Positions 4,783 to 20,225 of a DNA stretch of 20,225 nucleotides are shown piece by piece. The stretch's first letter is position 1. Each line of letters begins with the position of its first letter. This stretch comes from Treponema sp. (GTDB lineage: Bacteria > Spirochaetota > Spirochaetia > Treponematales > Breznakiellaceae): the NCBI GenBank assembly GCA_031265825.1, contig JAISCD010000019.1, positions 1 through 20,225 of the forward strand. The letters are read 5' to 3'. Both the position numbers and the translations under genes were made by a program. The notes under the pieces are model-generated. The model did no database searches and was not told the DNA's origin. It saw only the letters and a program-made list of their open reading frames with translations.

Positions 4783-4907
4783 ATGTCCGTCCTCATTTAT
4801 CTCCCCATAAATAATTAAATTGTTAAACAATGTCTCTGGGCGTTGTCAATCAACTGTATCAAATAAATATTCCAGAACTATTTTATTTTTTCCCCGCATT
4901 GCTATAC

Positions 4908-4960
4908 GCCAGACCCCGTTTTCTCAAGCGGGTTGAATGATTGCCGTCTCCGCATTTCCC
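4908..4960 (-). repeat. ~53-bp ghost copy of an internal segment of the endonuclease gene (homolog of 8503-8556), fused in-frame to array A
   Basis: tacgccagacccc(g)ttttctcaagcggRttgaatgattgccgtcYccgcatttcccc is present at both loci. It encodes GEMRGRQSFNPLEK in the endonuclease and GEMRRRQSFNPLEK at the C-terminus of the array ORF. A 1-nt indel then shifts the frame to a stop. Confidence 0.8.
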
Positions 4961-5376
4961 CGTCCACTCTCAAAGACCCGACATCCACTCTCAGAGACCC
5001 GACGTCCTCTCTCAAAGACCCGACTTCCACTCTCAGAGACCCGACTTCCACTCTTAAAGAGCCGACTTCCACTCTTAAAGAGCCGATTTCCTCTCTTTTA
5101 GACCCGACGTCCACTCTCAGAGAGCCGACACCCACTCTCAAAGACCCGACACCCACTCTCAAAGAGCCGATGTCCACTCTCAAAGACCCGACGTCCACTC
5201 TCAGAGAGCCGATTTCCACTCTCAGAGACCCGGCGTCCACTCTCAGAGACCCGACTTCCTCTCTCAGAGACCCGATGTCCACTCTCAAAGACCCGACATC
5301 CACTCTTTGAGAGCCGACATCCACTCTCAAAGAGCCGACGTCCTCTCTCAAAGAGCCGAAATCCACTCTCAGAGAG
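4961..5376. repeat. tandem array A: about 20 imperfect units of 21 bp (consensus tccactctcaRagaSccgacNt)
   Basis: Direct inspection shows strict 21-bp periodicity, with variation confined to a few positions. Each unit carries the palindrome (c)tctcAgaga(g), and many units also contain gacgtc. Both strands are open: + gives DPTSTLR heptads and - gives VGSLRVD heptads. Confidence 0.95.
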
Positions 5377-5384
5377 TAAAATAT

Positions 5385-5430
5385 CGCCGTGCTTTAACGT
5401 TATGCTGTTTTCTGTAGTCTTAATTTTGGG
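5385..5430 (-). repeat. ~46-bp ghost copy of the M1 3'-end / M2 5'-region junction (homolog of 6197-6242)
   Basis: atcgccgtgctttaRcgttatgYtgttttcYgtagtYttaatttt is present at both loci. In the real copy it encodes the last 11 aa of methyltransferase 1, and in another frame KIKTTENNITLKHGD, the N-terminal motif of methyltransferase 2. Confidence 0.8.
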
Positions 5431-5492
5431 CGCCACTTGACGCCTCTTTCTATTGCCGTCAAGGACGGCGGGCGAGACTGAGACTGTTACTT

Positions 5493-6152
5493 CTATAATA
5501 ATGACAATTCCATTGTCGTTTTATTGATCCTATCTTTTGCAATATTAAAATAATTATCATCAATTTCTATCCCAATAAATTTCCTTGCCAATTTCTTTGC
5601 CACTACTCCTGTTGTTCCACTACCCATAAATGGGTCTAAAATTGTATCTCCAATTCTACTACCCAATAATATAATACGCTTTAATAATGTCTCTGGCTTT
5701 TCCGTTGGGTGTTCCGTCAAATGTCTTTCCGCTGGTATTTCCCAAAGATTTTTCATCTGCTTTCCACCGTTTAATTCTTTTGCGGTATCATAATCAAAGA
5801 AATAGTTTTTTGTTTTGCTTGCAAGCCATATTAATTCAGTTGAAGGCGCAAGGCGATTCTTTGACAATAAAGGAGTAGCGTTCCTTTTAAACCATATAAT
5901 ATCGTTAATAATCCAATAATCAAGTTCTTTTAATAATACGCCAACGGAAGGGTGATTATGCAAGGTCCCAGACACCCATAATGTACCAGTATCCGATAAA
6001 ATCCTTTTACATTCTGTAAGCCACGCCCGATTAAAAGCATGAATATCATCAATAACATCCCATTTCCCTTTATCGCAGGCTACAGGTTTACCATTTTTAA
6101 CCGTAAGAAAACCTGCCCCTGACAAATTATAGGGGGGATCAGCAAAAATCAT
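5493..6152 (-). CDS. beta-class DNA amino-methyltransferase (N6-adenine or N4-cytosine), second methyltransferase of the R-M cassette. The N-terminus is anomalous
   Basis: Motif IV DPPYN lies at the N-terminus and motif I DPFMGSGTTG near the C-terminus, the beta permutation of the N6_N4_Mtase family. The gene is AT-rich. The conserved N-terminal segment is encoded upstream of the only ATG, which suggests an indel in the A-run at 6189-6193. Confidence 0.8.
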   Translation of the reverse strand: MIFADPPYNLSGAGFLTVKNGKPVACDKGKWDVIDDIHAFNRAWLTECKRILSDTGTLWVSGTLHNHPSVGVLLKELDYWIINDIIWFKRNATPLLSKNRLAPSTELIWLASKTKNYFFDYDTAKELNGGKQMKNLWEIPAERHLTEHPTEKPETLLKRIILLGSRIGDTILDPFMGSGTTGVVAKKLARKFIGIEIDDNYFNIAKDRINKTTMELSLL

Positions 6153-6211
6153 ATCTATACTTTTATCGGGAATATCTTTAATAAGAGTAAAAACATCGCC
6201 GTGCTTTAGCG

Positions 6212-7072
6212 TTATGTTGTTTTCCGTAGTTTTAATTTTAGACGCTCCTTTGCAACAAGAATATACTGTTCGTTTTTTTCAATGCCAATCCAATGGCGGT
6301 TTAATTCTTTCGCAACTTTCCCTGTTGTCCCTGTTCCGAAAAATGGATCCAGCACTATATCATTTTCATTCGACGATGCTTTAATAATTAACTCTAATAG
6401 TTTTTCCGGTTTTTGCGTCGGATGAACCGCACGCCCATTTGTTCCCTTAATGCGTTCTTTTCCCTGAACAATAGGTATTTCGATAAAATCAAAAAAATCA
6501 CGCATTTGCTTGCTATCACCATCTTTTGTCTTATGTGGGTTAAATTCTTTAACCTCGTTGTAATTAAAAATCCAATTTTTGCCTTTAACAAACCAGCACA
6601 CAAATTCCGTAGAATGGGTAAAAGTTCGTTTTGTAATATTTGGCATAGCATTAGTTTTATACCATGTTAAAATATTATTGAGTTTGAAGCCTACCTTTTT
6701 CCCTTCAATAAGAATTTCGCCGATATTATGTTGAGTACATGAAATATACAAACTGCCATTTGGCAAAAGAATCTTATGGCAAGCCTTCAACCAAGTTGCC
6801 GTGAACGTTACATAATCGAGATAATTAAAAGTATCCCAATCCTCATTCATTTTGTAATATGCACCACCAGTTTTGTTGTTTTTCAAATCAAGCGGCTTAC
6901 CGGATAAATTATAAGGCGGGTCGGCAAACACAAGATTTATTGAGTTTTCTTGTATTTGGGTTTCGAGTATTTGTACACAATCGCCTTGTATAATTTGATT
7001 AAGTGGTAATTTATGCGACAAGGGATATACCCCATTTGTTAATGATAGTCGGAATATTTGCCAACCAATCAT
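6212..7072 (-). CDS. beta-class DNA amino-methyltransferase (N6-adenine or N4-cytosine), first methyltransferase of the R-M cassette
   Basis: N-terminus IIQGDCVQILE...SINLVFADPPYNL (motif IV) and C-terminal VLDPFFGTGTTGKVA (motif I). The ATG at 7072 overlaps the endonuclease 3' end by 62 bp. An in-frame TTG near 7022 would reduce that overlap to 8 bp. Confidence 0.85.
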   Translation of the reverse strand: MIGWQIFRLSLTNGVYPLSHKLPLNQIIQGDCVQILETQIQENSINLVFADPPYNLSGKPLDLKNNKTGGAYYKMNEDWDTFNYLDYVTFTATWLKACHKILLPNGSLYISCTQHNIGEILIEGKKVGFKLNNILTWYKTNAMPNITKRTFTHSTEFVCWFVKGKNWIFNYNEVKEFNPHKTKDGDSKQMRDFFDFIEIPIVQGKERIKGTNGRAVHPTQKPEKLLELIIKASSNENDIVLDPFFGTGTTGKVAKELNRHWIGIEKNEQYILVAKERLKLKLRKTT

Positions 7073-8822
7073 CGGATTTTGTGAGTTCCTTCGATGATAA
7101 AACTATCGATTCAAACAATTCTTGTATCTTTTTATGCGATAGAAAATAGTCTTTGTTTTGTTTCTTTGCATCGAATAAATACTGTAATATTTCAATAAAC
7201 TGCTGAATAGTGATAGGAACGATGTTTTGTTTTTGTCCCTCATATTCATATTTTACGGAAAACCAAAAGGTGTTTCTGGTATCACGGTGGATTTTAGGAG
7301 CGACAAAAAGGCAATATGATTGTTTTTCATTATGCATCGCTTCAAAGTCTCTAAAATGCCGCATCACAGGCTGTCCTTCGTTAAACCATTGCGAACGGCT
7401 GGTTAATAATGTTACTTCACAGATTGAATTAAATGCTTGATAAAAACATTCAATGTCTGGTTTATTTGCCGGCGCGGTAAAGGTTGGCACATTGTCATCG
7501 CCTACAGGATAATTAGGATGAATTTCCAGCGCATCATTTAGGGCGTGTAAGCCGCTGGTAATAATTCGTTCCAATTCAACGGGCTTTTTACCAGCGAGTT
7601 TATGAATATTCTTTAAGTTAGTTATACAACTCTTTATATTTTCCAGTAATTGTAATTCCGCATGAACGCTTGCATCTGATAATTTGCGTCGATAGGAACG
7701 CAAATTTTCAATAGTCTTTTTTAGTGTAGTAGCATTATCATCTTTAGGTTTTATCTGCGGCATTTTGGGAAGGCTAATGCCTTTTGCTTTCATTATGTAC
7801 TCGGTTGTTTCAATGTCGGCGACTAATAATTTAATAACTTCCTGTAACTTCGTTTTATTTTCCCATGGCAATTCTGGCTGTGTAGCATCTCCTAAATACG
7901 TTGAGTATTCTGCTTTTAACGCGAATGTTTTTGCCGATGCGTTATCTGTTTCGATAATTGAATCAATCTCTATTTTTCGTCGCGGCTCTAGATCAATATA
8001 ATAATCATTTCCACGCAGATAAAAAAACCGAGTAAGGTGGAAGTTGCGTATTACATTATCCGCATAGTCTTTTGCGTTCCCCCATGACTCGTATTCGGAG
8101 AAATACTTATAAAAATATTCTTCCGCAAACTTTTCTATGCTTTCAGCAATTTTTACCTTTTGATAATCATTGCGGAATTTTAATATCTTTTCTGCCGTCT
8201 CTTCAATGTTTACATAGCTTGATAATGTTGTAAAGAACAAAGCGAATTCTATTTTTGATACGCCTTTTTCTTTTATACCTTGTCCAGCGCAAAGCGTATT
8301 TACTTTTTTAATTAAATGAAATGTAGCAATAAGTGGTTTAATATTGTAACCATCTTCTGCGGAATATTTATTCAGGTCAGGGTTGGGATATTGCCATTTA
8401 AGGAAACTACGAAAAAAAATATCGCCTAAATCGTAATTTTCGGATAAAAAAGCCTGTCCAAATGTGGTAACTTTTATTTTCTTTTCCGTATCAATATACG
8501 CCAGACCCATTTTCTCAAGCGGATTGAATGATTGCCGTCCCCGCATTTCCCCACCGCCTTTATAGTTTTTAGCGTTCAGTATTTCTTCCGCTTGTTCGTA
8601 GGTAAATGTATCGGAATGAAGCCATTCAAAGTGTTTTTTAGTTAATGTTTTTTCAAATTCGGGAATATTTATTCCGTATATTTTTCTCTGAAGCAGTAAT
8701 ATTTGGTAGCATTTCTGAGTTTCATCATTCCAAACTTCCCCCTCCAATTCCTTAAAAACCTTCAAGAAGGTACGTATCCGCTCGGGGTTTCTAACAGTTG
8801 TTGATATAGACCAAAGTCTCAT
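7011..8822 (-). CDS. putative type IIS restriction endonuclease, AlwI / N.BstNBI / PleI / MlyI-like (603 aa)
   Basis: A large ORF sits immediately upstream of, and co-oriented with, two strand-specific beta-class methyltransferases. That is the typical layout of a type IIS R-M system. Its size matches AlwI-family enzymes (~560-610 aa). Segments LKWQYP, PDIECFYQAFNSICEVT, QPVMRHF and YCLFVAPKI resemble AlwI-family (RE_AlwI) landmarks as I recall them. This was not verified by a search. A GAGGA RBS is present. Confidence 0.6.
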   Translation of the reverse strand: MRLWSISTTVRNPERIRTFLKVFKELEGEVWNDETQKCYQILLLQRKIYGINIPEFEKTLTKKHFEWLHSDTFTYEQAEEILNAKNYKGGGEMRGRQSFNPLEKMGLAYIDTEKKIKVTTFGQAFLSENYDLGDIFFRSFLKWQYPNPDLNKYSAEDGYNIKPLIATFHLIKKVNTLCAGQGIKEKGVSKIEFALFFTTLSSYVNIEETAEKILKFRNDYQKVKIAESIEKFAEEYFYKYFSEYESWGNAKDYADNVIRNFHLTRFFYLRGNDYYIDLEPRRKIEIDSIIETDNASAKTFALKAEYSTYLGDATQPELPWENKTKLQEVIKLLVADIETTEYIMKAKGISLPKMPQIKPKDDNATTLKKTIENLRSYRRKLSDASVHAELQLLENIKSCITNLKNIHKLAGKKPVELERIITSGLHALNDALEIHPNYPVGDDNVPTFTAPANKPDIECFYQAFNSICEVTLLTSRSQWFNEGQPVMRHFRDFEAMHNEKQSYCLFVAPKIHRDTRNTFWFSVKYEYEGQKQNIVPITIQQFIEILQYLFDAKKQNKDYFLSHKKIQELFESIVLSSKELTKSDDWLANIPTIINKWGISLVA

Positions 8823-8931
8823 ATATTCCTCATTATTATCATAAAGTTTTTATTTGTCCTTTATAATTTTCCCTTCAATTCATCAATTTCACTAATTAGT
8901 AAAGCAAAAACATTCTTATTTAATGAGTATC

Positions 8932-9245
8932 TTAATTCTCAGAGAGCCAACATCCACTCTCAGAGAGCCGATGTCCACTCTCAGAGACCCGTCATCCACT
9001 CTCAGAGACCCGATTTCCACTCTCAAAGAGCCGACATCCATTCTCAAAGAGCCGACGTCCACTCTCAGAGAGCCGATTTCCACTCTCAGAGAGCCGACTT
9101 CCACTCTCAAAGACCCGACGTCCTCTCTCAGAGACCCGACGTCCTCTCTTTTAGTCCCGACGTCCACTCTCAAAGAACCGACATCCACTCTCAGAGAGCC
9201 GACATCCACTCTCGGAGACCCGACGTCCACTCTCAAAGAGCCGAC
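8932..9245. repeat. tandem array B: about 15 units of the same 21-bp repeat (consensus tccactctcagagagccgacRt), in direct orientation to array A
   Basis: Direct inspection. The core palindrome ctctcAgagag (5-1-5) is cleaner here than in array A. On the minus strand the array lies 94 bp upstream of the endonuclease start codon. Confidence 0.95.
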
Positions 9246-9286
9246 GTCGGGTCTTTGAAAGTGAGTGGATACTCTCTGAGTATCCG
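9226..9286. repeat. terminal inverted repeat unit and hairpin pair closing array B
   Basis: The last unit is followed by its own near-exact reverse complement (ctcaaagagccgac|gtcgggtctttgaaag). A perfect 8-3-8 palindrome ggatactc-tct-gagtatcc follows, and it embeds the repeat core in inverted form. Confidence 0.7.
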
Positions 9287-10067: not shown

Positions 10068-10574
10068 ATGAAAAATTATTTTAGGTTTACGCTGTTGGTT
10101 CTCGTTGTTTTCTTTTCATTTCTGTCTTGTGAAGGTCTAACGATTGCTACGGTTGATTTTGATTATAATAAATTCAAAATTGAAAGATCGGCTTGGGAAA
10201 ATTCAAGCCCGCTTAATTATCAATATAAGTTATCAAATAGTGGCGGGGGAGAATATGTTCCCATTAACACTTTAATTATTGTTGAAAATGGACAATTTAA
10301 AGAACAAACTCCTCTTTCGGAATATGGAGAAGCAGGGGAAAATTATCAAACAATACATAAAGTTTACGAAACAATAGAAGATATTTATCAAAGATATAAT
10401 AATACCCAGCAATCTAAAAAAGATTTTTATTTAACAAAAATAAAAATAGAATATGATTCAAATCATGTTCCTCTAAAAACAGAGTATTATTATTACATTC
10501 CTCCATATTTAATGGATATGAGCACGTATTGGCGCTACGAAATAGAAAATTATAAAACAAATAGTAATGAGTAA
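10068..10574 (+). CDS. putative lipoprotein (168 aa), AT-rich
   Basis: GAAGGAG RBS. Signal peptide MKNYFRFTLLVLVVFFSFLSC ends in a lipobox-like FLSC with Cys at +1. The mature part is Tyr/Asn-rich and low in GC. No homolog recognised. Confidence 0.6.
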   Translation: MKNYFRFTLLVLVVFFSFLSCEGLTIATVDFDYNKFKIERSAWENSSPLNYQYKLSNSGGGEYVPINTLIIVENGQFKEQTPLSEYGEAGENYQTIHKVYETIEDIYQRYNNTQQSKKDFYLTKIKIEYDSNHVPLKTEYYYYIPPYLMDMSTYWRYEIENYKTNSNE

Positions 10575-10589
10575 TGAGGAAAGATGGGC

Positions 10590-11068
10590 GGGTGCCGCGG
10601 GTGTCAGAGACGTGAGGTGGCGGAGTAGGCGATGTCTGCGAGTGTCAGACGTGCGAGTTTTTTGGGGGTGGCGGAAGACCCGCGCAAGCGGGTCTGGAGA
10701 CAGGGGGGCGCACCGCAAGGGCGTCTGTGTGCCGTCCTCCGTTTAAGGAAAGACGCGCCCCCCTCATACAGAGAACAAATAGTAAAGAGCAGAGAGCAAT
10801 TAGTAAAGAGCAAAGGAAGAAGAGCCGTCCGAGGTGCAAACTGGGCGGCGCTTCGAGTGTCAGACATAAACAACGAATAGGCTCCGCTTGCTTGCAAGCG
10901 CACCCTTCGGGTGTTTTAAAGCGTCCTGCCTCGCCGTGCGTGTGGATTACCGAACATCGCGGAGGTTCCGCTTGCAAGGCAAGCGTAACCGTCCTGTCGG
11001 GGTCAGCGGCACACCCTTTCAAACAATAACCCGTGTGAAGTATTTAAACACCCGTTGGGTGTTTTTTT
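10590..11068 (+). repeat. GC-rich structured repeat element, copy L (inverted partner of 13152-13625)
   Basis: It aligns as a reverse complement with 13152-13625 over ~450 bp. It contains GTGTCAGAGAC and GTGTCAGAC palindromes, several stable hairpins, and an internal AGTAAAGAGC micro-repeat block. It ends in a perfect rho-independent terminator. The last ~20 codons of mazG are read from it on the opposite strand. Confidence 0.85.
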
Positions 11069-11851
11069 AGCTTCTTGCCAATATTTTTCCATGAGCGCAA
11101 GATTTTCATGATTCATCGCTTGAGATGATGCCCGCATTTGCTGTTCAATGTACTTGAATCGTTGAATGAACTTGGCGTTTGTCCGTCTCAGAGCGAGCGA
11201 AGGTTCCACTTTGAGAAAACGGCACAGGTTCACCGTTGCGAAAAGCAGATCCCCAAGCTCCTCTTCGAGGAATTCGGAGCGAGACGGATCGTTTTTTGCC
11301 AATTCCGCCATTACTTCGCCGATCTCTTCTTGGATTTTATCCACGACTTCCTCAGGTTTATCCCAATCAAAGCTCATTTTGGCGGCTTTTTTCTGCAATT
11401 TAAAGGCGCGGTCAAGGGGCGGCAAAGCGTTGGAGACTTCGTCCATGACAGAATCCTTCGGGGCGCGCCCCTCTTGCTCGATCTTTATCTTCTCCCAGTT
11501 ACGGAGAACCTCGGCGCTGTCCCCGACCTCAACGTCTCCAAATACGTGCGGGTGGCGGCGCGTGAGCTTTTCCGCAACACCCGCCAGAACATCGGAAACC
11601 GAGAAAAGCCCCGCCTGCTCGTGCATATAGGACAACATGACCGCGAGGAGAAAGACGTCCCCCAATTCTTCCTTGATATGCTCAGGGTCTCCCTCATCTA
11701 TGGCTTCGATACATTCATAAGTCTCTTCGATAAGCCCCGCGCGGAGGCTCGAAGGGGTTTGTTCCCTGTCCCACGGGCATCCATCGGGCGCGCGGAGTCT
11801 GGCAATGACGTTGTATAAATCCCTGAAGGTTTTTTCTAATTCGTTAATCAT
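11003..11851 (-). CDS. mazG: nucleoside triphosphate pyrophosphohydrolase MazG (tandem MazG domains)
   Basis: N-terminus MINELEKTFRDLYNVIARLRAPDGCPWDREQT with the EExGDxF motif and a second MazG domain (EELGDLLF). The C-terminal ~20 aa lie inside repeat element L. Confidence 0.9.
   Translation of the reverse strand: MINELEKTFRDLYNVIARLRAPDGCPWDREQTPSSLRAGLIEETYECIEAIDEGDPEHIKEELGDVFLLAVMLSYMHEQAGLFSVSDVLAGVAEKLTRRHPHVFGDVEVGDSAEVLRNWEKIKIEQEGRAPKDSVMDEVSNALPPLDRAFKLQKKAAKMSFDWDKPEEVVDKIQEEIGEVMAELAKNDPSRSEFLEEELGDLLFATVNLCRFLKVEPSLALRRTNAKFIQRFKYIEQQMRASSQAMNHENLALMEKYWQEAKKTPNGCLNTSHGLLFERVCR
11047..11068 (+). terminator. intrinsic terminator (aacaccc-gtt-gggtgt followed by TTTTTTT)
   Basis: A perfect 6-bp GC-rich stem, a 3-nt loop and a 7-T run on the + strand. 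On the minus strand the same hairpin is followed by tttaaatactt, which makes a weaker terminator for mazG. Confidence 0.7.
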
Positions 11852-11915
11852 GCTTGATTATACTTCAAGGAAAGGAGGCTTTACAAGACCGCAACTTTGA
11901 ATGTAGAATAGGCTT

Positions 11916-13151
11916 ATGAATACAGCATTAGAAAACCTGAGAGCCCGAGGATTTTTTCGGCAATGTACAGACGCGGAGCGGTTGTCCGCGCTCATGGACG
12001 AGGGTCCTGTTACGTTTTATGTGGGGTGCGACCCTACGGGATCGAGTCTTCACATCGGACACATGGTACCGTTTTTTGCGTTTCGGCACTTGCGCGCCGC
12101 GGGTCATCGTGGAATAGCCCTGATCGGCGGCGGTACGTCCCGCATCGGGGATCCTTCTGGCAAAACGTCCATGCGTCAAATGCTTGATTACGAGAAATTG
12201 GACGAAAACGCCGCTTCTATTACAAGGCAATTGGATGCTTTCTTGAACTTTGACGGACAAAATGCCTTCACCGCCAACAATAAGGATTGGCTCGCGGAAC
12301 TTAATTACATTGATTTCCTGCGCGATATAGGGAGGCATTTCTCTGTCAATCGTATGCTTTCCTTCGAGGCTTATCGTCTCCGTATGGAAACCGGGCTTTC
12401 GTTTCTTGAATTCAACTATCAGTTATTGCAGAGTTACGATTTCCTGCAATTATTCCGTAAACACGGGTGTCGTCTTCAGATAGGCGGGGATGATCAGTGG
12501 GGCAATATTGTCGCGGGTTCGGACTTGATTCGGCGGATTGACGGCGCGGAGGTGTTTGGTCTCACGTTCCCGCTTATCACCACAGCGGACGGCAAGAAGA
12601 TGGGCAAGACCGAGAAGGGCGCGCTCTTTCTTGACCCGTCTATCACTTCGCCTTATGACTTCTTCCAATATTGGCGGAATGTTCAGGACGCGGATATTAG
12701 GCGTTTCCTGCTCATGTTCACGTTTCTCTCTGTCGAAGAATGTACGGCTCTTACTGCGGAGGGCACGAGTCCCAACAACGCGAAGGAAAGGCTTGCCTGG
12801 GAGGTAACGGCTCTCATACACGGGAGGGATGCGGCGAATCGCGCGCTTGCCGGCGCACGCGCGAGTTTCGGCGGTTCGGGTGGCGATAAGTCCGCGGTAC
12901 CGACCGTCTCTCTTGCTATGGATAAGTTCGACGCGGGTTATAACATCGTCGATTTGTTCACAGATGCGGGGCTTTGTTCCACGAAGAGCGAGGCGCGGCG
13001 TCTTGTCCAGCAGGGCGGCGCATTTGTGAGCTGTGACGACGAGGGGTTCGTAGCCATAACGGATCCGAAAGCCGTGGTGGGTTTTTCAGAAGAATTGGTT
13101 CTTCGTGCAGGCAAGAAGCGCACCCTTCGGCTGCACCCGAAGGCTGTTTAA
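11916..13151 (+). CDS. tyrS: tyrosine--tRNA ligase
   Basis: Class I motifs HIGH (SLHIGHMVPF) and KMSKS (KKMGKTE) are present. A C-terminal S4-like domain ends the protein. It is divergent from mazG with a 64-bp intergenic gap, too short for a T-box leader. Confidence 0.95.
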   Translation: MNTALENLRARGFFRQCTDAERLSALMDEGPVTFYVGCDPTGSSLHIGHMVPFFAFRHLRAAGHRGIALIGGGTSRIGDPSGKTSMRQMLDYEKLDENAASITRQLDAFLNFDGQNAFTANNKDWLAELNYIDFLRDIGRHFSVNRMLSFEAYRLRMETGLSFLEFNYQLLQSYDFLQLFRKHGCRLQIGGDDQWGNIVAGSDLIRRIDGAEVFGLTFPLITTADGKKMGKTEKGALFLDPSITSPYDFFQYWRNVQDADIRRFLLMFTFLSVEECTALTAEGTSPNNAKERLAWEVTALIHGRDAANRALAGARASFGGSGGDKSAVPTVSLAMDKFDAGYNIVDLFTDAGLCSTKSEARRLVQQGGAFVSCDDEGFVAITDPKAVVGFSEELVLRAGKKRTLRLHPKAV

Positions 13152-13625
13152 CGACTTCACACGGGTTGTTGTACGAAAGGCGGACCCGCTGTCCCCGCAC
13201 CCTTCGGGTGTTGGACAACTTCACAATGGTTGTTGTTTGAAAGGTTGACCCGCTGACCCCGTCTTGACGGTTACGCTTGTCTTGCAAGCGGAACCTGCTC
13301 GTTGTTTATGTCTGACACCCGAAGCACACCCGAAGCGCCGCCCGGCTTGCACCTCGGACGGCTCTTCTTCCTTTGCTCATTGCTCATTACTAACTGCTAA
13401 TTGCTCTCTCCCCTCTGCTAACTGCTAACTATTCATTACTCACTAGTATGAGGGGGGCGCATCTTTCCCTAAACGTGATTGGCACACAGACGCCCTTGCG
13501 GTGCGCCCCCCTGTCTCCAGACCGCCCCCGCGTGGCGGGTTTAAAAGGGGCGGTCTTCCGCCACCCCCCAAAACTTGCACCTCTGACACCATCGCCTCCG
13601 CCCGCCTGCCGGTGCCTACCCGCCG
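13152..13625 (-). repeat. GC-rich structured repeat element, copy R (inverted partner of 10590-11068)
   Basis: Reverse-complement alignment with copy L. It starts exactly at the tyrS stop. It contains a tandem internal duplication of a ~47-bp module (13154-13200 and 13215-13262), an expanded TTAGCAG-type micro-repeat block, and a hairpin whose stem sequence differs from L while staying complementary. Confidence 0.85.
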
Positions 13626-13676
13626 TCCGTCTTTCCTCTTTGCTATCTGCTTTATTATTTGCTCTTTTTTATTTGG

Positions 13677-13890
13677 TGTCAGGCATCGCCCCGAAACTCC
13701 GCCCTGTGCCTGCGGTGTCAGACATCGCCTTACTCCACCGCCCGGCGTGGTGTCAGTCATTATACTTTTATGTCTGCGTACCGGGGGTGCGGCGGCGTGC
13801 GTGCGGTGTCAGACATGGGCTATTCAGCGTGGTGTCAGACACTATACCTGCGTATCGGGACATAGGCTTATTACGGCTAGGTGTCAGACA
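13677..13890 (+). repeat. row of six direct GGTGTCAGACAY palindromic motifs spaced at 30-57 bp
   Basis: Motif starts at 13677, 13716, 13750, 13807, 13837 and 13881, all in the same orientation. The core GTGTC-A-GACAC is a 5-1-5 palindrome. Confidence 0.85.
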
Positions 13891-14172
13891 TCTTGTCTTA
13901 ACTCTGCGCCATCTTGTCTTAACTCTGCGCCATCTTGTCTCAACTCTGCACCATCTTGTCTCAACTCCGCGCCATCTTGTCTCAACTCCGCTCCATCTTG
14001 TCTTAACTCTGCTCCATCTTGTCTTAACTCTGCTCCATCTTGTCTCAACTCTGCGGCATCTTGTCTCAACTCTACGCCATCTTGTCTCAACTCTGTCGTA
14101 TCTTGTCTTAACTCTGCGCCATCTTGTCTCAACTCTGCGCCATCTTGTCTCAACTCTATGGCATCTTGTCTC
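13889..14172. repeat. tandem array C: about 13.5 units of a different 21-bp repeat (catcttgtctYaactctgcgc)
   Basis: Direct inspection. The array is bracketed on both sides by GTCAGACAT motifs. The left boundary forms a 5-3-5 palindrome agaca-tct-tgtct. Confidence 0.95.
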
Positions 14173-14189
14173 TGTCAGACATCGGGACT

Positions 14190-14282
14190 ATGTTTGGGGA
14201 GGGGGTAGCGTAAGACCGATCCTTTTAAACCAGCTACGCGGGGGACGAGCTGGAGACAGGGGGCGCACCACAAGGATATGAG
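14190..14282 (+). repeat. third, partial copy of the element core (same orientation as copy L)
   Basis: aagaccgatccttttaaaccagctacgcgggggacgagctggagacagggggcgcaccacaagg matches the L/R core (ggcggaagacc...ctggagacaggggggcgcaccgcaagg). Confidence 0.7.
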
Positions 14283-14332
14283 AAAGTCCGCGTGCGCGCG
14301 GATTTGTCTGTTCTGTATTTACTAAATGTTAC

Positions 14333-14343
14333 GGGGGGGGGGG
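14333..14343 (+). repeat. homopolymeric G tract (11 G)
   Basis: Counted directly in the sequence. It is the longest homopolymer in the window and lies ~620 bp upstream of the SPFH operon. Confidence 0.9.
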
Positions 14344-14964
14344 TAGATCGCTCGTATTCCCACAAACAGCCTTCTATAGCGGCTTGCGGGCTTCCAAAGA
14401 CGAGAAAGTTCTCTATGCGCTTGTCGTTTCTGCATAGTATTTACCCAAAAGACAGAAATTGTCAAACGCATTTGACTATAAATGCTTGCTTTACAGATAA
14501 GTTTACGTTATAATAGCAGTACGAGCCAAAGCTGAGGCTTTAGAGCCTCGCGGCGCCGCTCCGCTGGAATACGGCGTGCCGACTCGCAAGGGTTTGTAAC
14601 TACAGACTTGCATGGACTCCGTAATAACGCGGCTGACTTGTCAAGACCGCGTCTTATTATTGAAATATCATCCATGCTCCATGCGTCAGCGTGCGCAAAA
14701 CAAAAGCGCTAAGTCTTAAGTGAAGATCTTAGTAAGCATGGTTAGGAATAGCCTTATTATTCCGCAACGCCGAAGACGGTAAAGGGTCGGCAACCCTTGC
14801 GCGGCACCGGATACCGCCGCTCTGTTTCTTGTCGATGCGCCCGTTTCGAGAAACGCGACTTTCGCTTTTTACAAACGGACGCGGACGCTCAGAACATACA
14901 GGCTCAAAGAGCCGCCCGTTTGTCTGCCTCGACTTCGGCGTTTTATCAGTTTTAGGAGAGAAAA

Positions 14965-16116
14965 ATGCAAATCTTACAAGAAGAACGCGGTCTGCTTTAC
15001 CGAAGAGACGAATATAAAAGACTGCTTATGCCCGGAAAATATTTTATCCCACCCGGCTGTCGAGTGGAACGCTATTGTATCGACGAACCGTTCAACCCTG
15101 ATAATCATAACATCAACGGACTTTTGGAACAGGATAAAGCCATCGCCGAAAATCTTGACGTCATTGAAGTCCCAGATGGACGCCTCCTCCTCGTCCATGA
15201 GAACGGCAACCTCATCGGCGCGTTTCTTGGCGACAACAGGAAAGTCTGCTATTGGAAGTTTTCTCGTTCAGTTGGTAGCGAGAGAACACGCAAGTTTACC
15301 TTGGTTGACCTTAACGATGCGGAAAGCGCGAAAAACTTGGACCGCGCCGTGTTGACTCATCCACTGGTAACAAGGTTGAATATCGTGTTGAGATGCGACG
15401 TCAAGAGCTGGGAGAAAGGACTCCTCTTCATAGACGATCAATTCATCCACCTTTTGGAAAGCGGCGTTCATTTCTTCTGGGACGTGGATATAAACAGCGA
15501 GGGACAGGGACGCATTGAAATAGTAAAGACCGATCTCAGGCAACAACAGATTGATATTTCAGGGCAGGAAATTATGACCGCGGATAAGACGCCCCTCCGC
15601 GTCAACTTCTTCTGCCGCTACCGCGTCATTGATATAATGAAGTCCATACTCAGTATAAAAGACTTGAGAGAACAGTTTTATACAGCTCTGCAAATCGTTC
15701 TCCGCGAATATCTTGGTTCTCTTACTTTCGACGCGCTCATGGAAAAACGGCGGAGTATAGCGACTGAAATGTCCGAAACGCTTCGAGAGGTCTGCGCGGG
15801 TTTCGGGCTTGAATTCATAGGCGCGGGTATAAAGGACATCATCCTACCCGGCGAAATCCGCGAAATCATGAACCAAGTTCTCATCGCGGAGAAGAAGGCT
15901 CAGGCAAACGTCGTTATGCGGCGGGAAGAAACCGCCTCGACGCGGAGTCTCCTCAACACGGCAAAACTTATGGAAGAAAATACGGTACTTGCCCGTTTGA
16001 AAGAGATGGAGTATATTGAACGTATTGCTTTGAATATTAAGGAGATTAGCCTTTCCGGTAAATTTCAAGTATTCGACGAATTACGGACTCTGTTCACGCC
16101 GAAGAGCGGCGGTTGA
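14965..16116 (+). CDS. SPFH/band-7 (stomatin/prohibitin/HflKC-like) domain protein with an uncharacterised N-terminal domain
   Basis: The C-terminal half follows the SPFH pattern (GLLFIDDQ...GVHFFWD...IDISGQEIMTADKTPLRVNFFCRYRVID...ILPGEIREIM). The RBS context ttttaggagagaaaaATG is identical to the one in front of htrA. Confidence 0.75.
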   Translation: MQILQEERGLLYRRDEYKRLLMPGKYFIPPGCRVERYCIDEPFNPDNHNINGLLEQDKAIAENLDVIEVPDGRLLLVHENGNLIGAFLGDNRKVCYWKFSRSVGSERTRKFTLVDLNDAESAKNLDRAVLTHPLVTRLNIVLRCDVKSWEKGLLFIDDQFIHLLESGVHFFWDVDINSEGQGRIEIVKTDLRQQQIDISGQEIMTADKTPLRVNFFCRYRVIDIMKSILSIKDLREQFYTALQIVLREYLGSLTFDALMEKRRSIATEMSETLREVCAGFGLEFIGAGIKDIILPGEIREIMNQVLIAEKKAQANVVMRREETASTRSLLNTAKLMEENTVLARLKEMEYIERIALNIKEISLSGKFQVFDELRTLFTPKSGG

Positions 16117-19790: not shown

Positions 19791-20225
19791 AGGCGTTGTG
19801 GTGCCAGACACCCGCGAAAGTGCCAGACACCAGCGCCTAGCCCCCGTGCCCTGACCCCGCCCGCCCGTCTTTCCTTTGCTAACTGCTAACTGCTAATTGC
19901 TAACTGCTCTCTGAAAAAAGGCGTTATGGTGCCCGCGAGGGCGTTGCGGTGTCTGACACCAGCGCCTAGCCACCGTGTCCTGCCCCCGCCTGCCCGTCTT
20001 TCCTTTGCTACCTGCTACCTGCTAACCACTAACTGCTACCTGCTCTCTGCTAATTGCTAACTGCTCTCTGCTAACTGCTCTCTGAAAAAAGGCGTTATGG
20101 TGCCAGACACCAGCGCCTAGCCCCCGTGTCCTGCCCCCGCCCGCCCGTCTTTCCGTTGCTAACTGCTCTCAGCTAACAGCTCTCAGAAAAAAGGCGTTGT
20201 GGGGACAGAAACCCGCGCCCAGCCG
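19791..20225 (+). repeat. composite tandem repeats of 123, 171 and 102 bp, with a fourth truncated by the window end. Each holds a variable block of CTGCTAA/CTGCTAC heptamers
   Basis: Units start at ~19791, 19914, 20085 and 20187. The module order is aaaaaaggcgttRtggtgcc-agacacc-agcgcctagcccccgtgYcctgMccccgccYgcccgtctttcc-(ttgcta + heptamer x3-10)-ctctctg. The first modules are related to 13575-13680 of element R. Confidence 0.9.

Follow-up and report, generated by a model that had tools for sequence, protein, structure and literature searches.

A strain-variable 21-bp minisatellite and its palindromic surroundings in a termite-gut Treponema

Described intergenic repeats and the Treponema locus

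Several classes of short bacterial repeat offer points of comparison for the locus considered here, a 21-bp tandem array (array C, positions 13889-14172) in a 20,225-bp metagenome contig of a termite-gut-type Treponema, the whole of which is referred to below as the window. Bacterial interspersed mosaic elements (BIMEs) and repetitive extragenic palindromic sequences (REPs) are extragenic, occur in many copies per genome and combine a short palindromic unit with other motifs in mosaics at gene ends; the REPs themselves are lineage-specific, imperfect palindromes 20-40 bp long that possess a loop and carry GTAG or CGTC as a tag. In the Neisseria intergenic mosaic elements (NIMEs), repeat units of 50-150 bp that vary among loci are bounded by 20-bp dRS3 inverted repeats (ATTCCC-N8-GGGAAT), the latter a known phage or recombinase target. 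Pneumococcal BOX elements (boxA-boxB(n)-boxC) and the mycobacterial interspersed repetitive units of the variable-number tandem repeat type (MIRU-VNTR) are intergenic and contain one module whose copy number varies among strains, a property exploited in multilocus VNTR analysis (MLVA) typing. Plasmid iterons and centromeres, such as F sopC with its 12 x 43 bp and a short inverted repeat in every unit, are built from units of ~20-40 bp that carry a protein-recognition box beside a variable remainder and recur at near-whole helical turns. Rickettsia palindromic elements (RPEs) are selfish palindromic repeats that reside in frame inside genes as single insertions of 100-150 bp and are restricted to Rickettsia, and the short tandemly repeated repetitive (STRR) heptamers are tandem 7-bp intergenic repeats of heterocystous cyanobacteria. 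Finally, REP clusters are often reiterated in tandem (PMC3733652).

The array C locus resembles BIMEs and REPs in being extragenic, in combining a palindrome with other motifs in a mosaic, and in forming tandem clusters; the 10-mer GTGTCAGACA that frames the array occurs 17 times in the window at no more than one mismatch, against 0.52 occurrences expected. However, the palindrome is in this case a perfect 13-mer with a 1-nt centre, lacking a tag or extended stem and identical across phyla. Neither this palindrome nor array C has the form of a tagged stem-loop of 20-40 bp, and array C itself does not contain the palindrome. The manner in which dyad sites punctuate variable units at 13675-14183 is reminiscent of the NIMEs, but the sequences differ and NIME units are not 21-bp tandem arrays. 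As in BOX elements and MIRU-VNTRs, the copy number of array C varies (13.5 vs 6.3 in two strains), although there is no sequence similarity, boxB measures 45 bp and MIRUs 40-100 bp, and array C has to date been found at one locus. With the iterons it shares a conserved box followed by a variable remainder and a period near two helical turns, yet it is chromosomal, lies between housekeeping genes in a 20-kb window that holds neither a rep nor a par gene, and has no plasmid match, and some genomes carry many clusters of the associated palindrome. An RPE-like arrangement is found in a Vicinamibacterales genome, where an in-frame insertion of 6 x 21 bp resides in a MOFRL-domain enzyme; unlike RPEs, the site there is 13 bp long, forms tandem arrays and is spread over many phyla. 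The TGCTAAC arrays that adjoin array C are tandem, 7-bp and intergenic as are the STRR heptamers, but the heptamer and the phylum differ and the unit of array C has no heptamer substructure. With a unit of 10-100 bp, a position outside genes and a copy number that varies among strains, array C has the properties of an intergenic VNTR or minisatellite.

Array C, its strain variation and the palindrome that frames it

Array C lies in a 1.8-kb non-coding gap between the tyrosyl-tRNA synthetase (TyrRS) gene (11916-13151) on its left and an SPFH/slipin gene (14965-16116) on its right. Tandem Repeats Finder resolves 13889-14172 into 13.5 copies at period 21 (90% matches, 1% indels, score 433, consensus CATCTTGTCTCAACTCTGCGC) and a repeat-family search returns 12 in-register copies at a spacing of 21, which together with the unit list bears out the original prediction of ~13.5 units of CATCTTGTCTYAACTCTGCGC with a C/T dimorphism (Y) at unit position 11. 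The 5-3-5 palindrome AGACA-TCT-TGTCT that was also predicted at the left edge is present at 13885-13897. The units abut directly, without spacers, and have neither a dyad nor a 7-bp substructure (3 x 7 test, p = 0.28). The 13 full units differ from one another at seven positions (1, 11 and 17-21), six of which fall in one circular block of 6 nt (p ~0.003). The unit can accordingly be divided into a box at positions 3-16, TCTTGTCT-Y-AACTC, which in the window is invariant except at Y11, and a variable linker formed by positions 17-21 and 1; the 14-nt box is nearly invariant over 19 units from two strains. Pyrimidines predominate in the array, and no structure is predicted for it. No other copy of the unit was found in 185,579 reference genomes, and a search of metagenomes yielded one match (L004), an unrelated AT-rich coding repeat, although this second absence is weak since the search did not return the window's own contig. 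Array C is thus far known from one lineage and one locus.

The original prediction proposed that copy number be compared among strains, and the comparison reveals a difference. A sister strain, represented by a 10,236-bp contig from a different sample (L001) whose TyrRS is 96% identical to that of the window, is syntenic with the window from the bPH gene through the SPFH start and carries array C at the orthologous place with 6.3 rather than 13.5 copies. Additionally, the prevailing unit in the sister strain is CGTCTTGTCTCAACTCTACGG (CGTC...ACGG) vs CATC...GCGC in the window, and such strain-specific variants have the appearance of a signature of within-array homogenisation, or concerted evolution. 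Because the sister strain has only ~6.3 copies and its own unit variants at the corresponding place, array C is best regarded as a fast-evolving minisatellite. The DNA downstream of the array is 94% identical between the two strains, and a non-coding block at 14369-14520, at the edge of the fast-evolving island, is 99% identical; since third codon positions of TyrRS, taken as a neutral benchmark, are 86.5% identical, the repeat island abuts constrained, probably regulatory DNA. Upstream of the array, the strains differ by whole modules. Five palindrome-type sites (13675-13843) and an inverted G-rich module copy are present in the window only, and 15 TGCTAAC heptamers and a 73-bp repeat in the sister strain only. 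L002, a more divergent relative (TyrRS 86%), lacks arrays, and a GntR gene lies in its short gap. These comparisons cover ~35 kb of lineage sequence in all and two alleles of array C, both in short-read metagenome assemblies in which absolute copy numbers could be collapsed. Exact-protein look-ups for further alleles with the window TyrRS, SPFH and P0001 proteins gave no match, and a search for SPFH homologues led only to L120, a continuation of the sister strain that covers the Fumble locus.

Array C was predicted to be framed on both sides by GTCAGACAT motifs, and these are in place (GTGTCAGACA at 13881-13890 and CTGTCAGACA at 14172-14181, with a T after each); what went unrecognised is that the motif is part of a 13-bp palindrome, GGTGTC-W-GACACC. 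Seven sites of this type surround the array. The left flanking site, GGTGTCAGACATC (13880-13892), is a copy with one mismatch that shares its last 4 nt (CATC) with the start of array unit 1, and the right flanking site, TCTGTCAGACATC (14171-14183), is degenerate. In the sister strain, GGTGTCAGACA flanks the array on both sides, the right flank having the fuller form GGTGTCAGACATC at the corresponding place, and the centres of the two flanking palindromes are 147 bp, or 7 x 21, apart. The five remaining sites of the window begin at 13675, 13714, 13749, 13805 and 13831 (together 13675-13843), at spacings of 39, 35, 56 and 26 bp, and the left arm GGTGTCAG is perfect in all of them while the right arm varies. 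The 13-bp palindrome family, rather than the frame motif as such, is the true organising feature of the locus.

The same form, GGTGTC-W-GACACC, recurs far beyond Treponema. In a 596-Gb genome collection at least 115 stretches contain two of its 11-mers 20-50 bp apart, whereas chance would account for ~1-2 by calculation, and at least 25 unrelated bacterial lineages carry clusters and tandem amplifications of the palindrome between their genes. Among the carriers are the Alcaligenaceae, including Achromobacter and Bordetella with numerous loci in each genome; Gaiellaceae/Thermoleophilia, Gaiellales, Acidimicrobiia and Bifidobacteriaceae; Acidobacteriota, Vicinamibacterales, Aminicenantes, Myxococcota/Myxococcaceae and Pirellulaceae; several Gamma- and Alphaproteobacteria; Bacteroidota, Firmicutes and Clostridia; and five metagenome-assembled genomes (MAGs) of termite Treponema. 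The clusters are intergenic and most are tandem arrays, whose periods range from 12 to >100 bp, and no helical phasing of spacings was seen across the listed loci (examples among L005-L119 are L025:7165-7720, L014:4935-5141, L031:1486-1606 and L080:2045-3297). In a pooled logo, the two positions not required by the search are 97% and 90% C and conservation ends abruptly at +-7; complementarity beyond the 13-mer, at 0.28-0.37, barely exceeds that of a slid control (0.24-0.30). The site therefore appears to be sharply bounded and not the core of a longer hairpin, and no hairpin extension was seen beyond +-6. Among the listed loci, at least 115 in number, no dedicated neighbour gene emerged, the neighbours being of generic families (ABC ATPase, LysR, SDR, MFS, GntR, Bug), and none resembling a REP-associated tyrosine transposase (RAYT) was seen; in Treponema, the clusters adjoin unrelated housekeeping genes. 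Viral contigs contained no palindrome clusters. One array departs from the intergenic pattern: in a Vicinamibacterales MAG (L031:621-1832), six palindromes at period 21 lie in frame within a DUF4147+MOFRL glycerate-kinase-like enzyme (VSDTRxx x 6), each unit comprising the invariant 13-bp site and a variable linker of 8 nt. In-frame insertion of this kind would be expected of selfish repeats rather than of an operator.

We found no description of the palindrome in the searchable literature, full-text searches for its 11- to 13-mers having returned only chance primer hits. Its 9-mer core is present in one Pseudomonas promoter with different arms, and the Bordetella 'Bor' repeats are 26-30-bp REP-like stem-loops distinct from the 13-bp palindrome. 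Literature searches on Treponema primitia repeats likewise found nothing.

Origin of array C and the alternatives

A link between array C and the palindrome repeats comes from the nearest reference species. MAG Cd354_bin125 (L080), whose TyrRS is 87% identical to that of the window, carries 29 copies of a 42-bp palindrome-bearing unit, GGTGTCAGACACC-TTGTCTGCGAG-TGGCGCACCCGTGTTGTC, in a 1.25-kb array ~590 bp upstream (5') of its TyrRS gene, with a short signal-peptide-like open reading frame (ORF) between. The junction GACAyC-TTGTCT, in which the palindrome runs into TTGTCT, occurs in only the window, the sister strain and this MAG among 117 loci. With the palindrome as anchor, the 42-bp unit agrees over its first 21 nt with the array C unit at 13/21 positions and with unit 1 of the sister strain at 14/21; only five of 811 control 21-mers reach 13 (empirical p ~0.006). 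Because the junction is exclusive, the anchored match exceeds most controls and TyrRS stands beside the MAG's array as well, we have moderate confidence that the array C unit represents the palindrome-proximal half of an ancestral palindrome-bearing repeat. In the same MAG (L080:226-3297), MazG is not adjacent and the neighbourhood of TyrRS is rearranged around palindrome repeats.

On balance, we favour an account in which a palindrome-anchored repeat gave rise to array C as a non-coding minisatellite that evolves rapidly within a mosaic intergenic island. Array C would have arisen by tandem amplification of the 21 bp directly after a copy of GGTGTC-W-GACACC, with a re-phasing through which each unit retained no more of the right arm than its final four bases (CAYC), followed by TTGTCT. 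It would in effect be an expanded 'spacer' between two neighbouring palindromes of the seven-site cluster. Replication slippage and/or unequal recombination may then have driven its growth, shrinkage and homogenisation, which would explain why copy number and prevailing variant differ between strains that are ~94% identical in the flanks, and the array would serve no required cellular function. Several observations weigh against this account. The variable positions of the unit are clustered (p ~0.003) and the 14-nt box is nearly invariant, but pure neutral slippage predicts no such box, so that constraint or a directed process may act. The strain comparison is limited to two alleles, both from short-read assemblies whose copy numbers could be collapsed. 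The junction homology with the MAG is moderate (p ~0.006), and the MAG's array lies 5' of TyrRS and not 3'. Finally, the account leaves the recurrence of period 21 in four unrelated units unexplained.

The main alternative, which we hold to be unlikely although well ahead of the remaining functional readings, is that array C is a protein-binding array of the iteron or centromere type. The TCTTGTCT-Y-AACTC box, which contains the palindrome half-site TGTC, would be presented every two helical turns, so that a dimeric palindrome-recognising protein, or another protein, might coat the array, and copy number might adjust either occupancy or the distance to the conserved regulatory block that precedes the SPFH operon. 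The conserved box with its hypervariable 6-nt linker (clustering p ~0.003) is consistent with this view, as are the similar layout of true palindrome arrays (for example the 13-bp site and 8-nt linker at period 21 of L031), the sharp end of the palindrome at 13 bp, as for a duplex-DNA recognition site rather than a hairpin, the full sites that flank the array, the near-equivalence of 21 bp to two helical turns, and the exact 7 x 21-bp separation of flanking centres in the sister strain. In the window, however, the flanking centres are 291 bp apart, a multiple of neither 21 nor 10.5, and palindrome spacings across loci are not helically phased. The 20-kb window holds no candidate DNA-binding gene and no rep or par gene lies nearby; no plasmid match was obtained, and no protein family recurs beside the listed palindrome clusters. 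A TGTC half-site is weak evidence in a 21-mer, and the in-frame palindrome array of L031 argues that no regulatory role is needed. A related proposal shifts the emphasis to the palindrome: GGTGTC-W-GACACC might be the site of a horizontally spread DNA-binding or DNA-processing protein, or itself a self-propagating micro-element, with the site-anchored arrays, and palindrome-less derivatives such as array C and the lineage's other 21-bp arrays, as its products rather than those of slippage. We regard this as a tentative possibility, about as doubtful as a binding array.

Coding, RNA and artefactual explanations fare less well. The open frames on both strands described in the original prediction exist, at 13448-14281 (+, 277 aa), 13501-14208 (+, 235 aa, with the SCLNSAP heptads) and 13884-14153 (-, 89 aa), and a period that is a multiple of 3, with several frames open through the array on both strands, could suggest a heptad repeat (SCLNSAP, RHLVSTL or AELRQDG) of a genuine protein. 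The array-spanning ORFs nevertheless start, end and frame differently in the two strains and run on through palindromes and other repeat modules; the variation among units has no 3-nt periodicity; and Pfam hits all fall under the curated cut-offs, belong to unrelated coiled-coil or repeat families and include no significant stretch. The depositor annotated no gene at the sister-strain array. Since there is no strain-conserved ORF, only sub-threshold Pfam similarity, and variation that is contiguous and not 3-periodic, array C is, as judged from its sequence, non-coding. The open frames are a by-product of a stop-codon-free unit, and we reject a coding repeat as extremely improbable. A transcribed repeat RNA, for instance one that reads through from TyrRS, terminates at the 14284-14305 hairpin and acts as a protein or small-RNA sponge or as a type III antitoxin-like precursor, is very unlikely, if less remote than a coding repeat. 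The antitoxins of ToxIN-type systems are indeed tandem RNA repeats, the array is rich in pyrimidines with no structure predicted, and a terminator-like hairpin with a T-rich tail follows 110 nt downstream on the + strand. Yet no toxin-candidate ORF of at least 80 aa is present on either strand between the array and the SPFH gene (14282-14964), no convincing promoter lies upstream, there is no structure signal, and the unit has no counterpart in the 185,579 reference genomes or in viral contigs. Rfam 15 gave zero matches at the gathering score over the whole window and zero at E<=1 over 10500-15000, and with the adjacent G-rich module folding no better than shuffled sequences a structured RNA or known RNA family is unsupported.

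An assembly artefact, in which array C would stem from a cycle in a de Bruijn graph, merits consideration because the window and sister-strain contigs are both short-read metagenome assemblies and repeat periods equal to the k-mer size are a known assembly failure mode. Against this, the units are imperfect with variants in an ordered pattern, unique and conserved sequence borders the array on both sides within its 20-kb contig, an orthologous array with different variants occurs in an independent assembly of another sample, and unrelated genomes, isolates among them, carry the associated palindrome arrays at many other periods; an artefact is therefore about as improbable as a coding repeat. 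A plasmid or phage origin was rejected: neither the window region nor an Achromobacter cluster matched PLSDB, and the palindrome pair, the array C unit and the unit of arrays A and B (see below) had no viral-contig hits. The locus is also not a clustered regularly interspaced short palindromic repeat (CRISPR) array, in that the array C units have no spacers, the palindrome is 13 bp long with intervening sequences that are themselves repeated, and the window contains no cas genes.

The repeat island, the other arrays and the biology of the lineage

The window genes are chromosomal housekeeping genes (an HtrA-like protease, a C-C bond lyase, MazG, TyrRS, the SPFH/slipin protein, an M18 aminopeptidase and a Fumble-type pantothenate kinase) together with an AlwI-family restriction enzyme and two N6/N4 methyltransferases. 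The closest named relatives of TyrRS, in Treponema primitia and Breznakiella, are ~75% identical, and a tRNA search of the window found none. An identical 18-mer, TTTTAGGAGAGAAAAATG, which comprises a ribosome-binding site and start codon, precedes the HtrA-like (1323-1340) and SPFH (14950-14967) genes.

Repeat modules recur at four intergenic regions of the window. A G-rich module of ~75 nt with core GGGGGTRGCGKAAGAC...CTGGAGACAGGGGGCGCACCRCAAGG is present in three copies: copy 3 (14201-14283, +; alignment A2) is directly 3' of array C and conserved in the sister strain, copy 2 (13446-13573, -; inverted repeats I7 and I16) is inverted, and a further copy lies at 10659-10770 (+). In the window strain only, copies 2 and 3 bracket the palindrome cluster and array C. 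The module has no Rfam match and its RNA fold is no better than that of shuffled sequences (z = -0.6 for copy 3, z = -1.2 for copy 2); the start of copy 3 resembles the ops-like element GGCGGTAGCGTG at 10/12 positions, which may be chance. Downstream of the module, the terminator-like hairpin and T-rich tail at 14284-14305 (+) are recognised by consensus match only. The strain-conserved block at 14369-14520 is likely the regulatory region of the SPFH operon, and is probably an operator/promoter region or some novel RNA; within it, ~450 bp before the SPFH gene, are a dyad (GTCAAA-cgca-TTTGAC) and a TATAAT-like element. TGCTMAY heptamer arrays at 13373-13430 are part of the same mosaic island, and TGCTAAC-type arrays recur at 19877-19908, at 20006-20079 and in the sister strain (L001:8595-8700), the heptamers sometimes being organised as 21-bp triplets. 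A second palindrome cluster, with variants GGTGCCAGACACC and GGTGTCTGACACC, occupies 19799-20112 within composite repeats of 130-150 bp. The divergent MazG and TyrRS genes carry a common module composite of ~450 bp at their 3' ends (10575-11061 and 13134-13573), and these composites pair as long inverted repeats (as much as 109 nt with 83% identity, and 43 nt with 100%) that could permit inversion of the gene pair.

Two further 21-bp arrays in the window, array A (4961-5375, 19.8 copies) and array B (8937-9248, 14.9 copies), share the unit ACGTCCACTCTCAGAGACCCG and bracket a low-GC AlwI-type restriction-modification cassette (GC 0.33-0.37 vs ~0.5 around); the sister strain has 10.3 and 8.9 copies. 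The original prediction of a 21-bp period common to arrays A, B and C agrees with Tandem Repeats Finder, but the three are not independent, since A and B form one family around the cassette. That the array C unit is unrelated to theirs was correctly noted, the best circular alignment being 10/21 (p = 0.57), and by the same measure the shared ACTCT does not rise above chance; a common origin is rejected on these grounds, as is one with the TGCTAAC heptamers (p = 0.40-0.92). The A/B unit has no 7-bp substructure, its variable sites are scattered and not arranged in the box-plus-linker layout of array C, a maintained dyad is rejected (perfect in 13/53 units), and no palindrome copies adjoin either array. 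Part of the 5' region of the restriction enzyme gene (8473-8552) is repeated at 4881-4961, on the left of array A, where it shares a reading frame with the array A ORF; over a 47-nt core the two stretches are 94% identical. The interval 4881-9248 looks like the scar of a cassette duplication or of an insertion into a pre-existing array.

Period 21 nonetheless recurs, as originally predicted. Among the six window arrays of at least three copies, four have period 21, one period 7 and one, in a coding region, period 18, and the sister strain adds an unrelated array after the Fumble gene (L120:4552-4726, unit AACTTTTCGTACACCTCTCCG, 8.3 copies) that is private to it and lacking in the window. By comparison, about 110 non-Treponema loci yield period 21 in 3/50 arrays. 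The lineage's period-21 unit families (A/B, C, the L120 array and the TGCTAAC triplet) are mutually unrelated, and period 21 is over-represented in its ~35 kb. Helical phasing, tolerance of multiples of three and a mechanism that sets unit length are candidate explanations. For the shared generating mechanism put forward in the original prediction, support is only partial. At the Fumble locus, where the sister strain also has an 18-bp palindrome array of 18.7 copies (GTGCCAGACACCTGCGAA, L120:4748-5080) that runs to the contig end, the window counterpart is two palindrome copies and different composite repeats; arrays have thus been gained or lost between the strains.

By itself, array C is a strain-typing-grade VNTR from a termite symbiont that is uncultured, of practical use but otherwise unremarkable. 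Its value is raised by its context, in that it appears to derive from arrays built on a 13-bp palindrome found across phyla, which is the most interesting by-product of this analysis. If one factor recognises or propagates this site, the pair would constitute a new REP/RAYT-like partnership of unusually broad distribution, and if the palindrome is a self-propagating element or has a cognate protein, it would represent a new cross-phylum class of repeat able to colonise coding sequence in frame. For the lineage itself, the preference for 21 bp, with four unrelated units in ~35 kb that are gained and lost at ~94% identity, provides a natural system for the question of what sets the length of a repeat unit.

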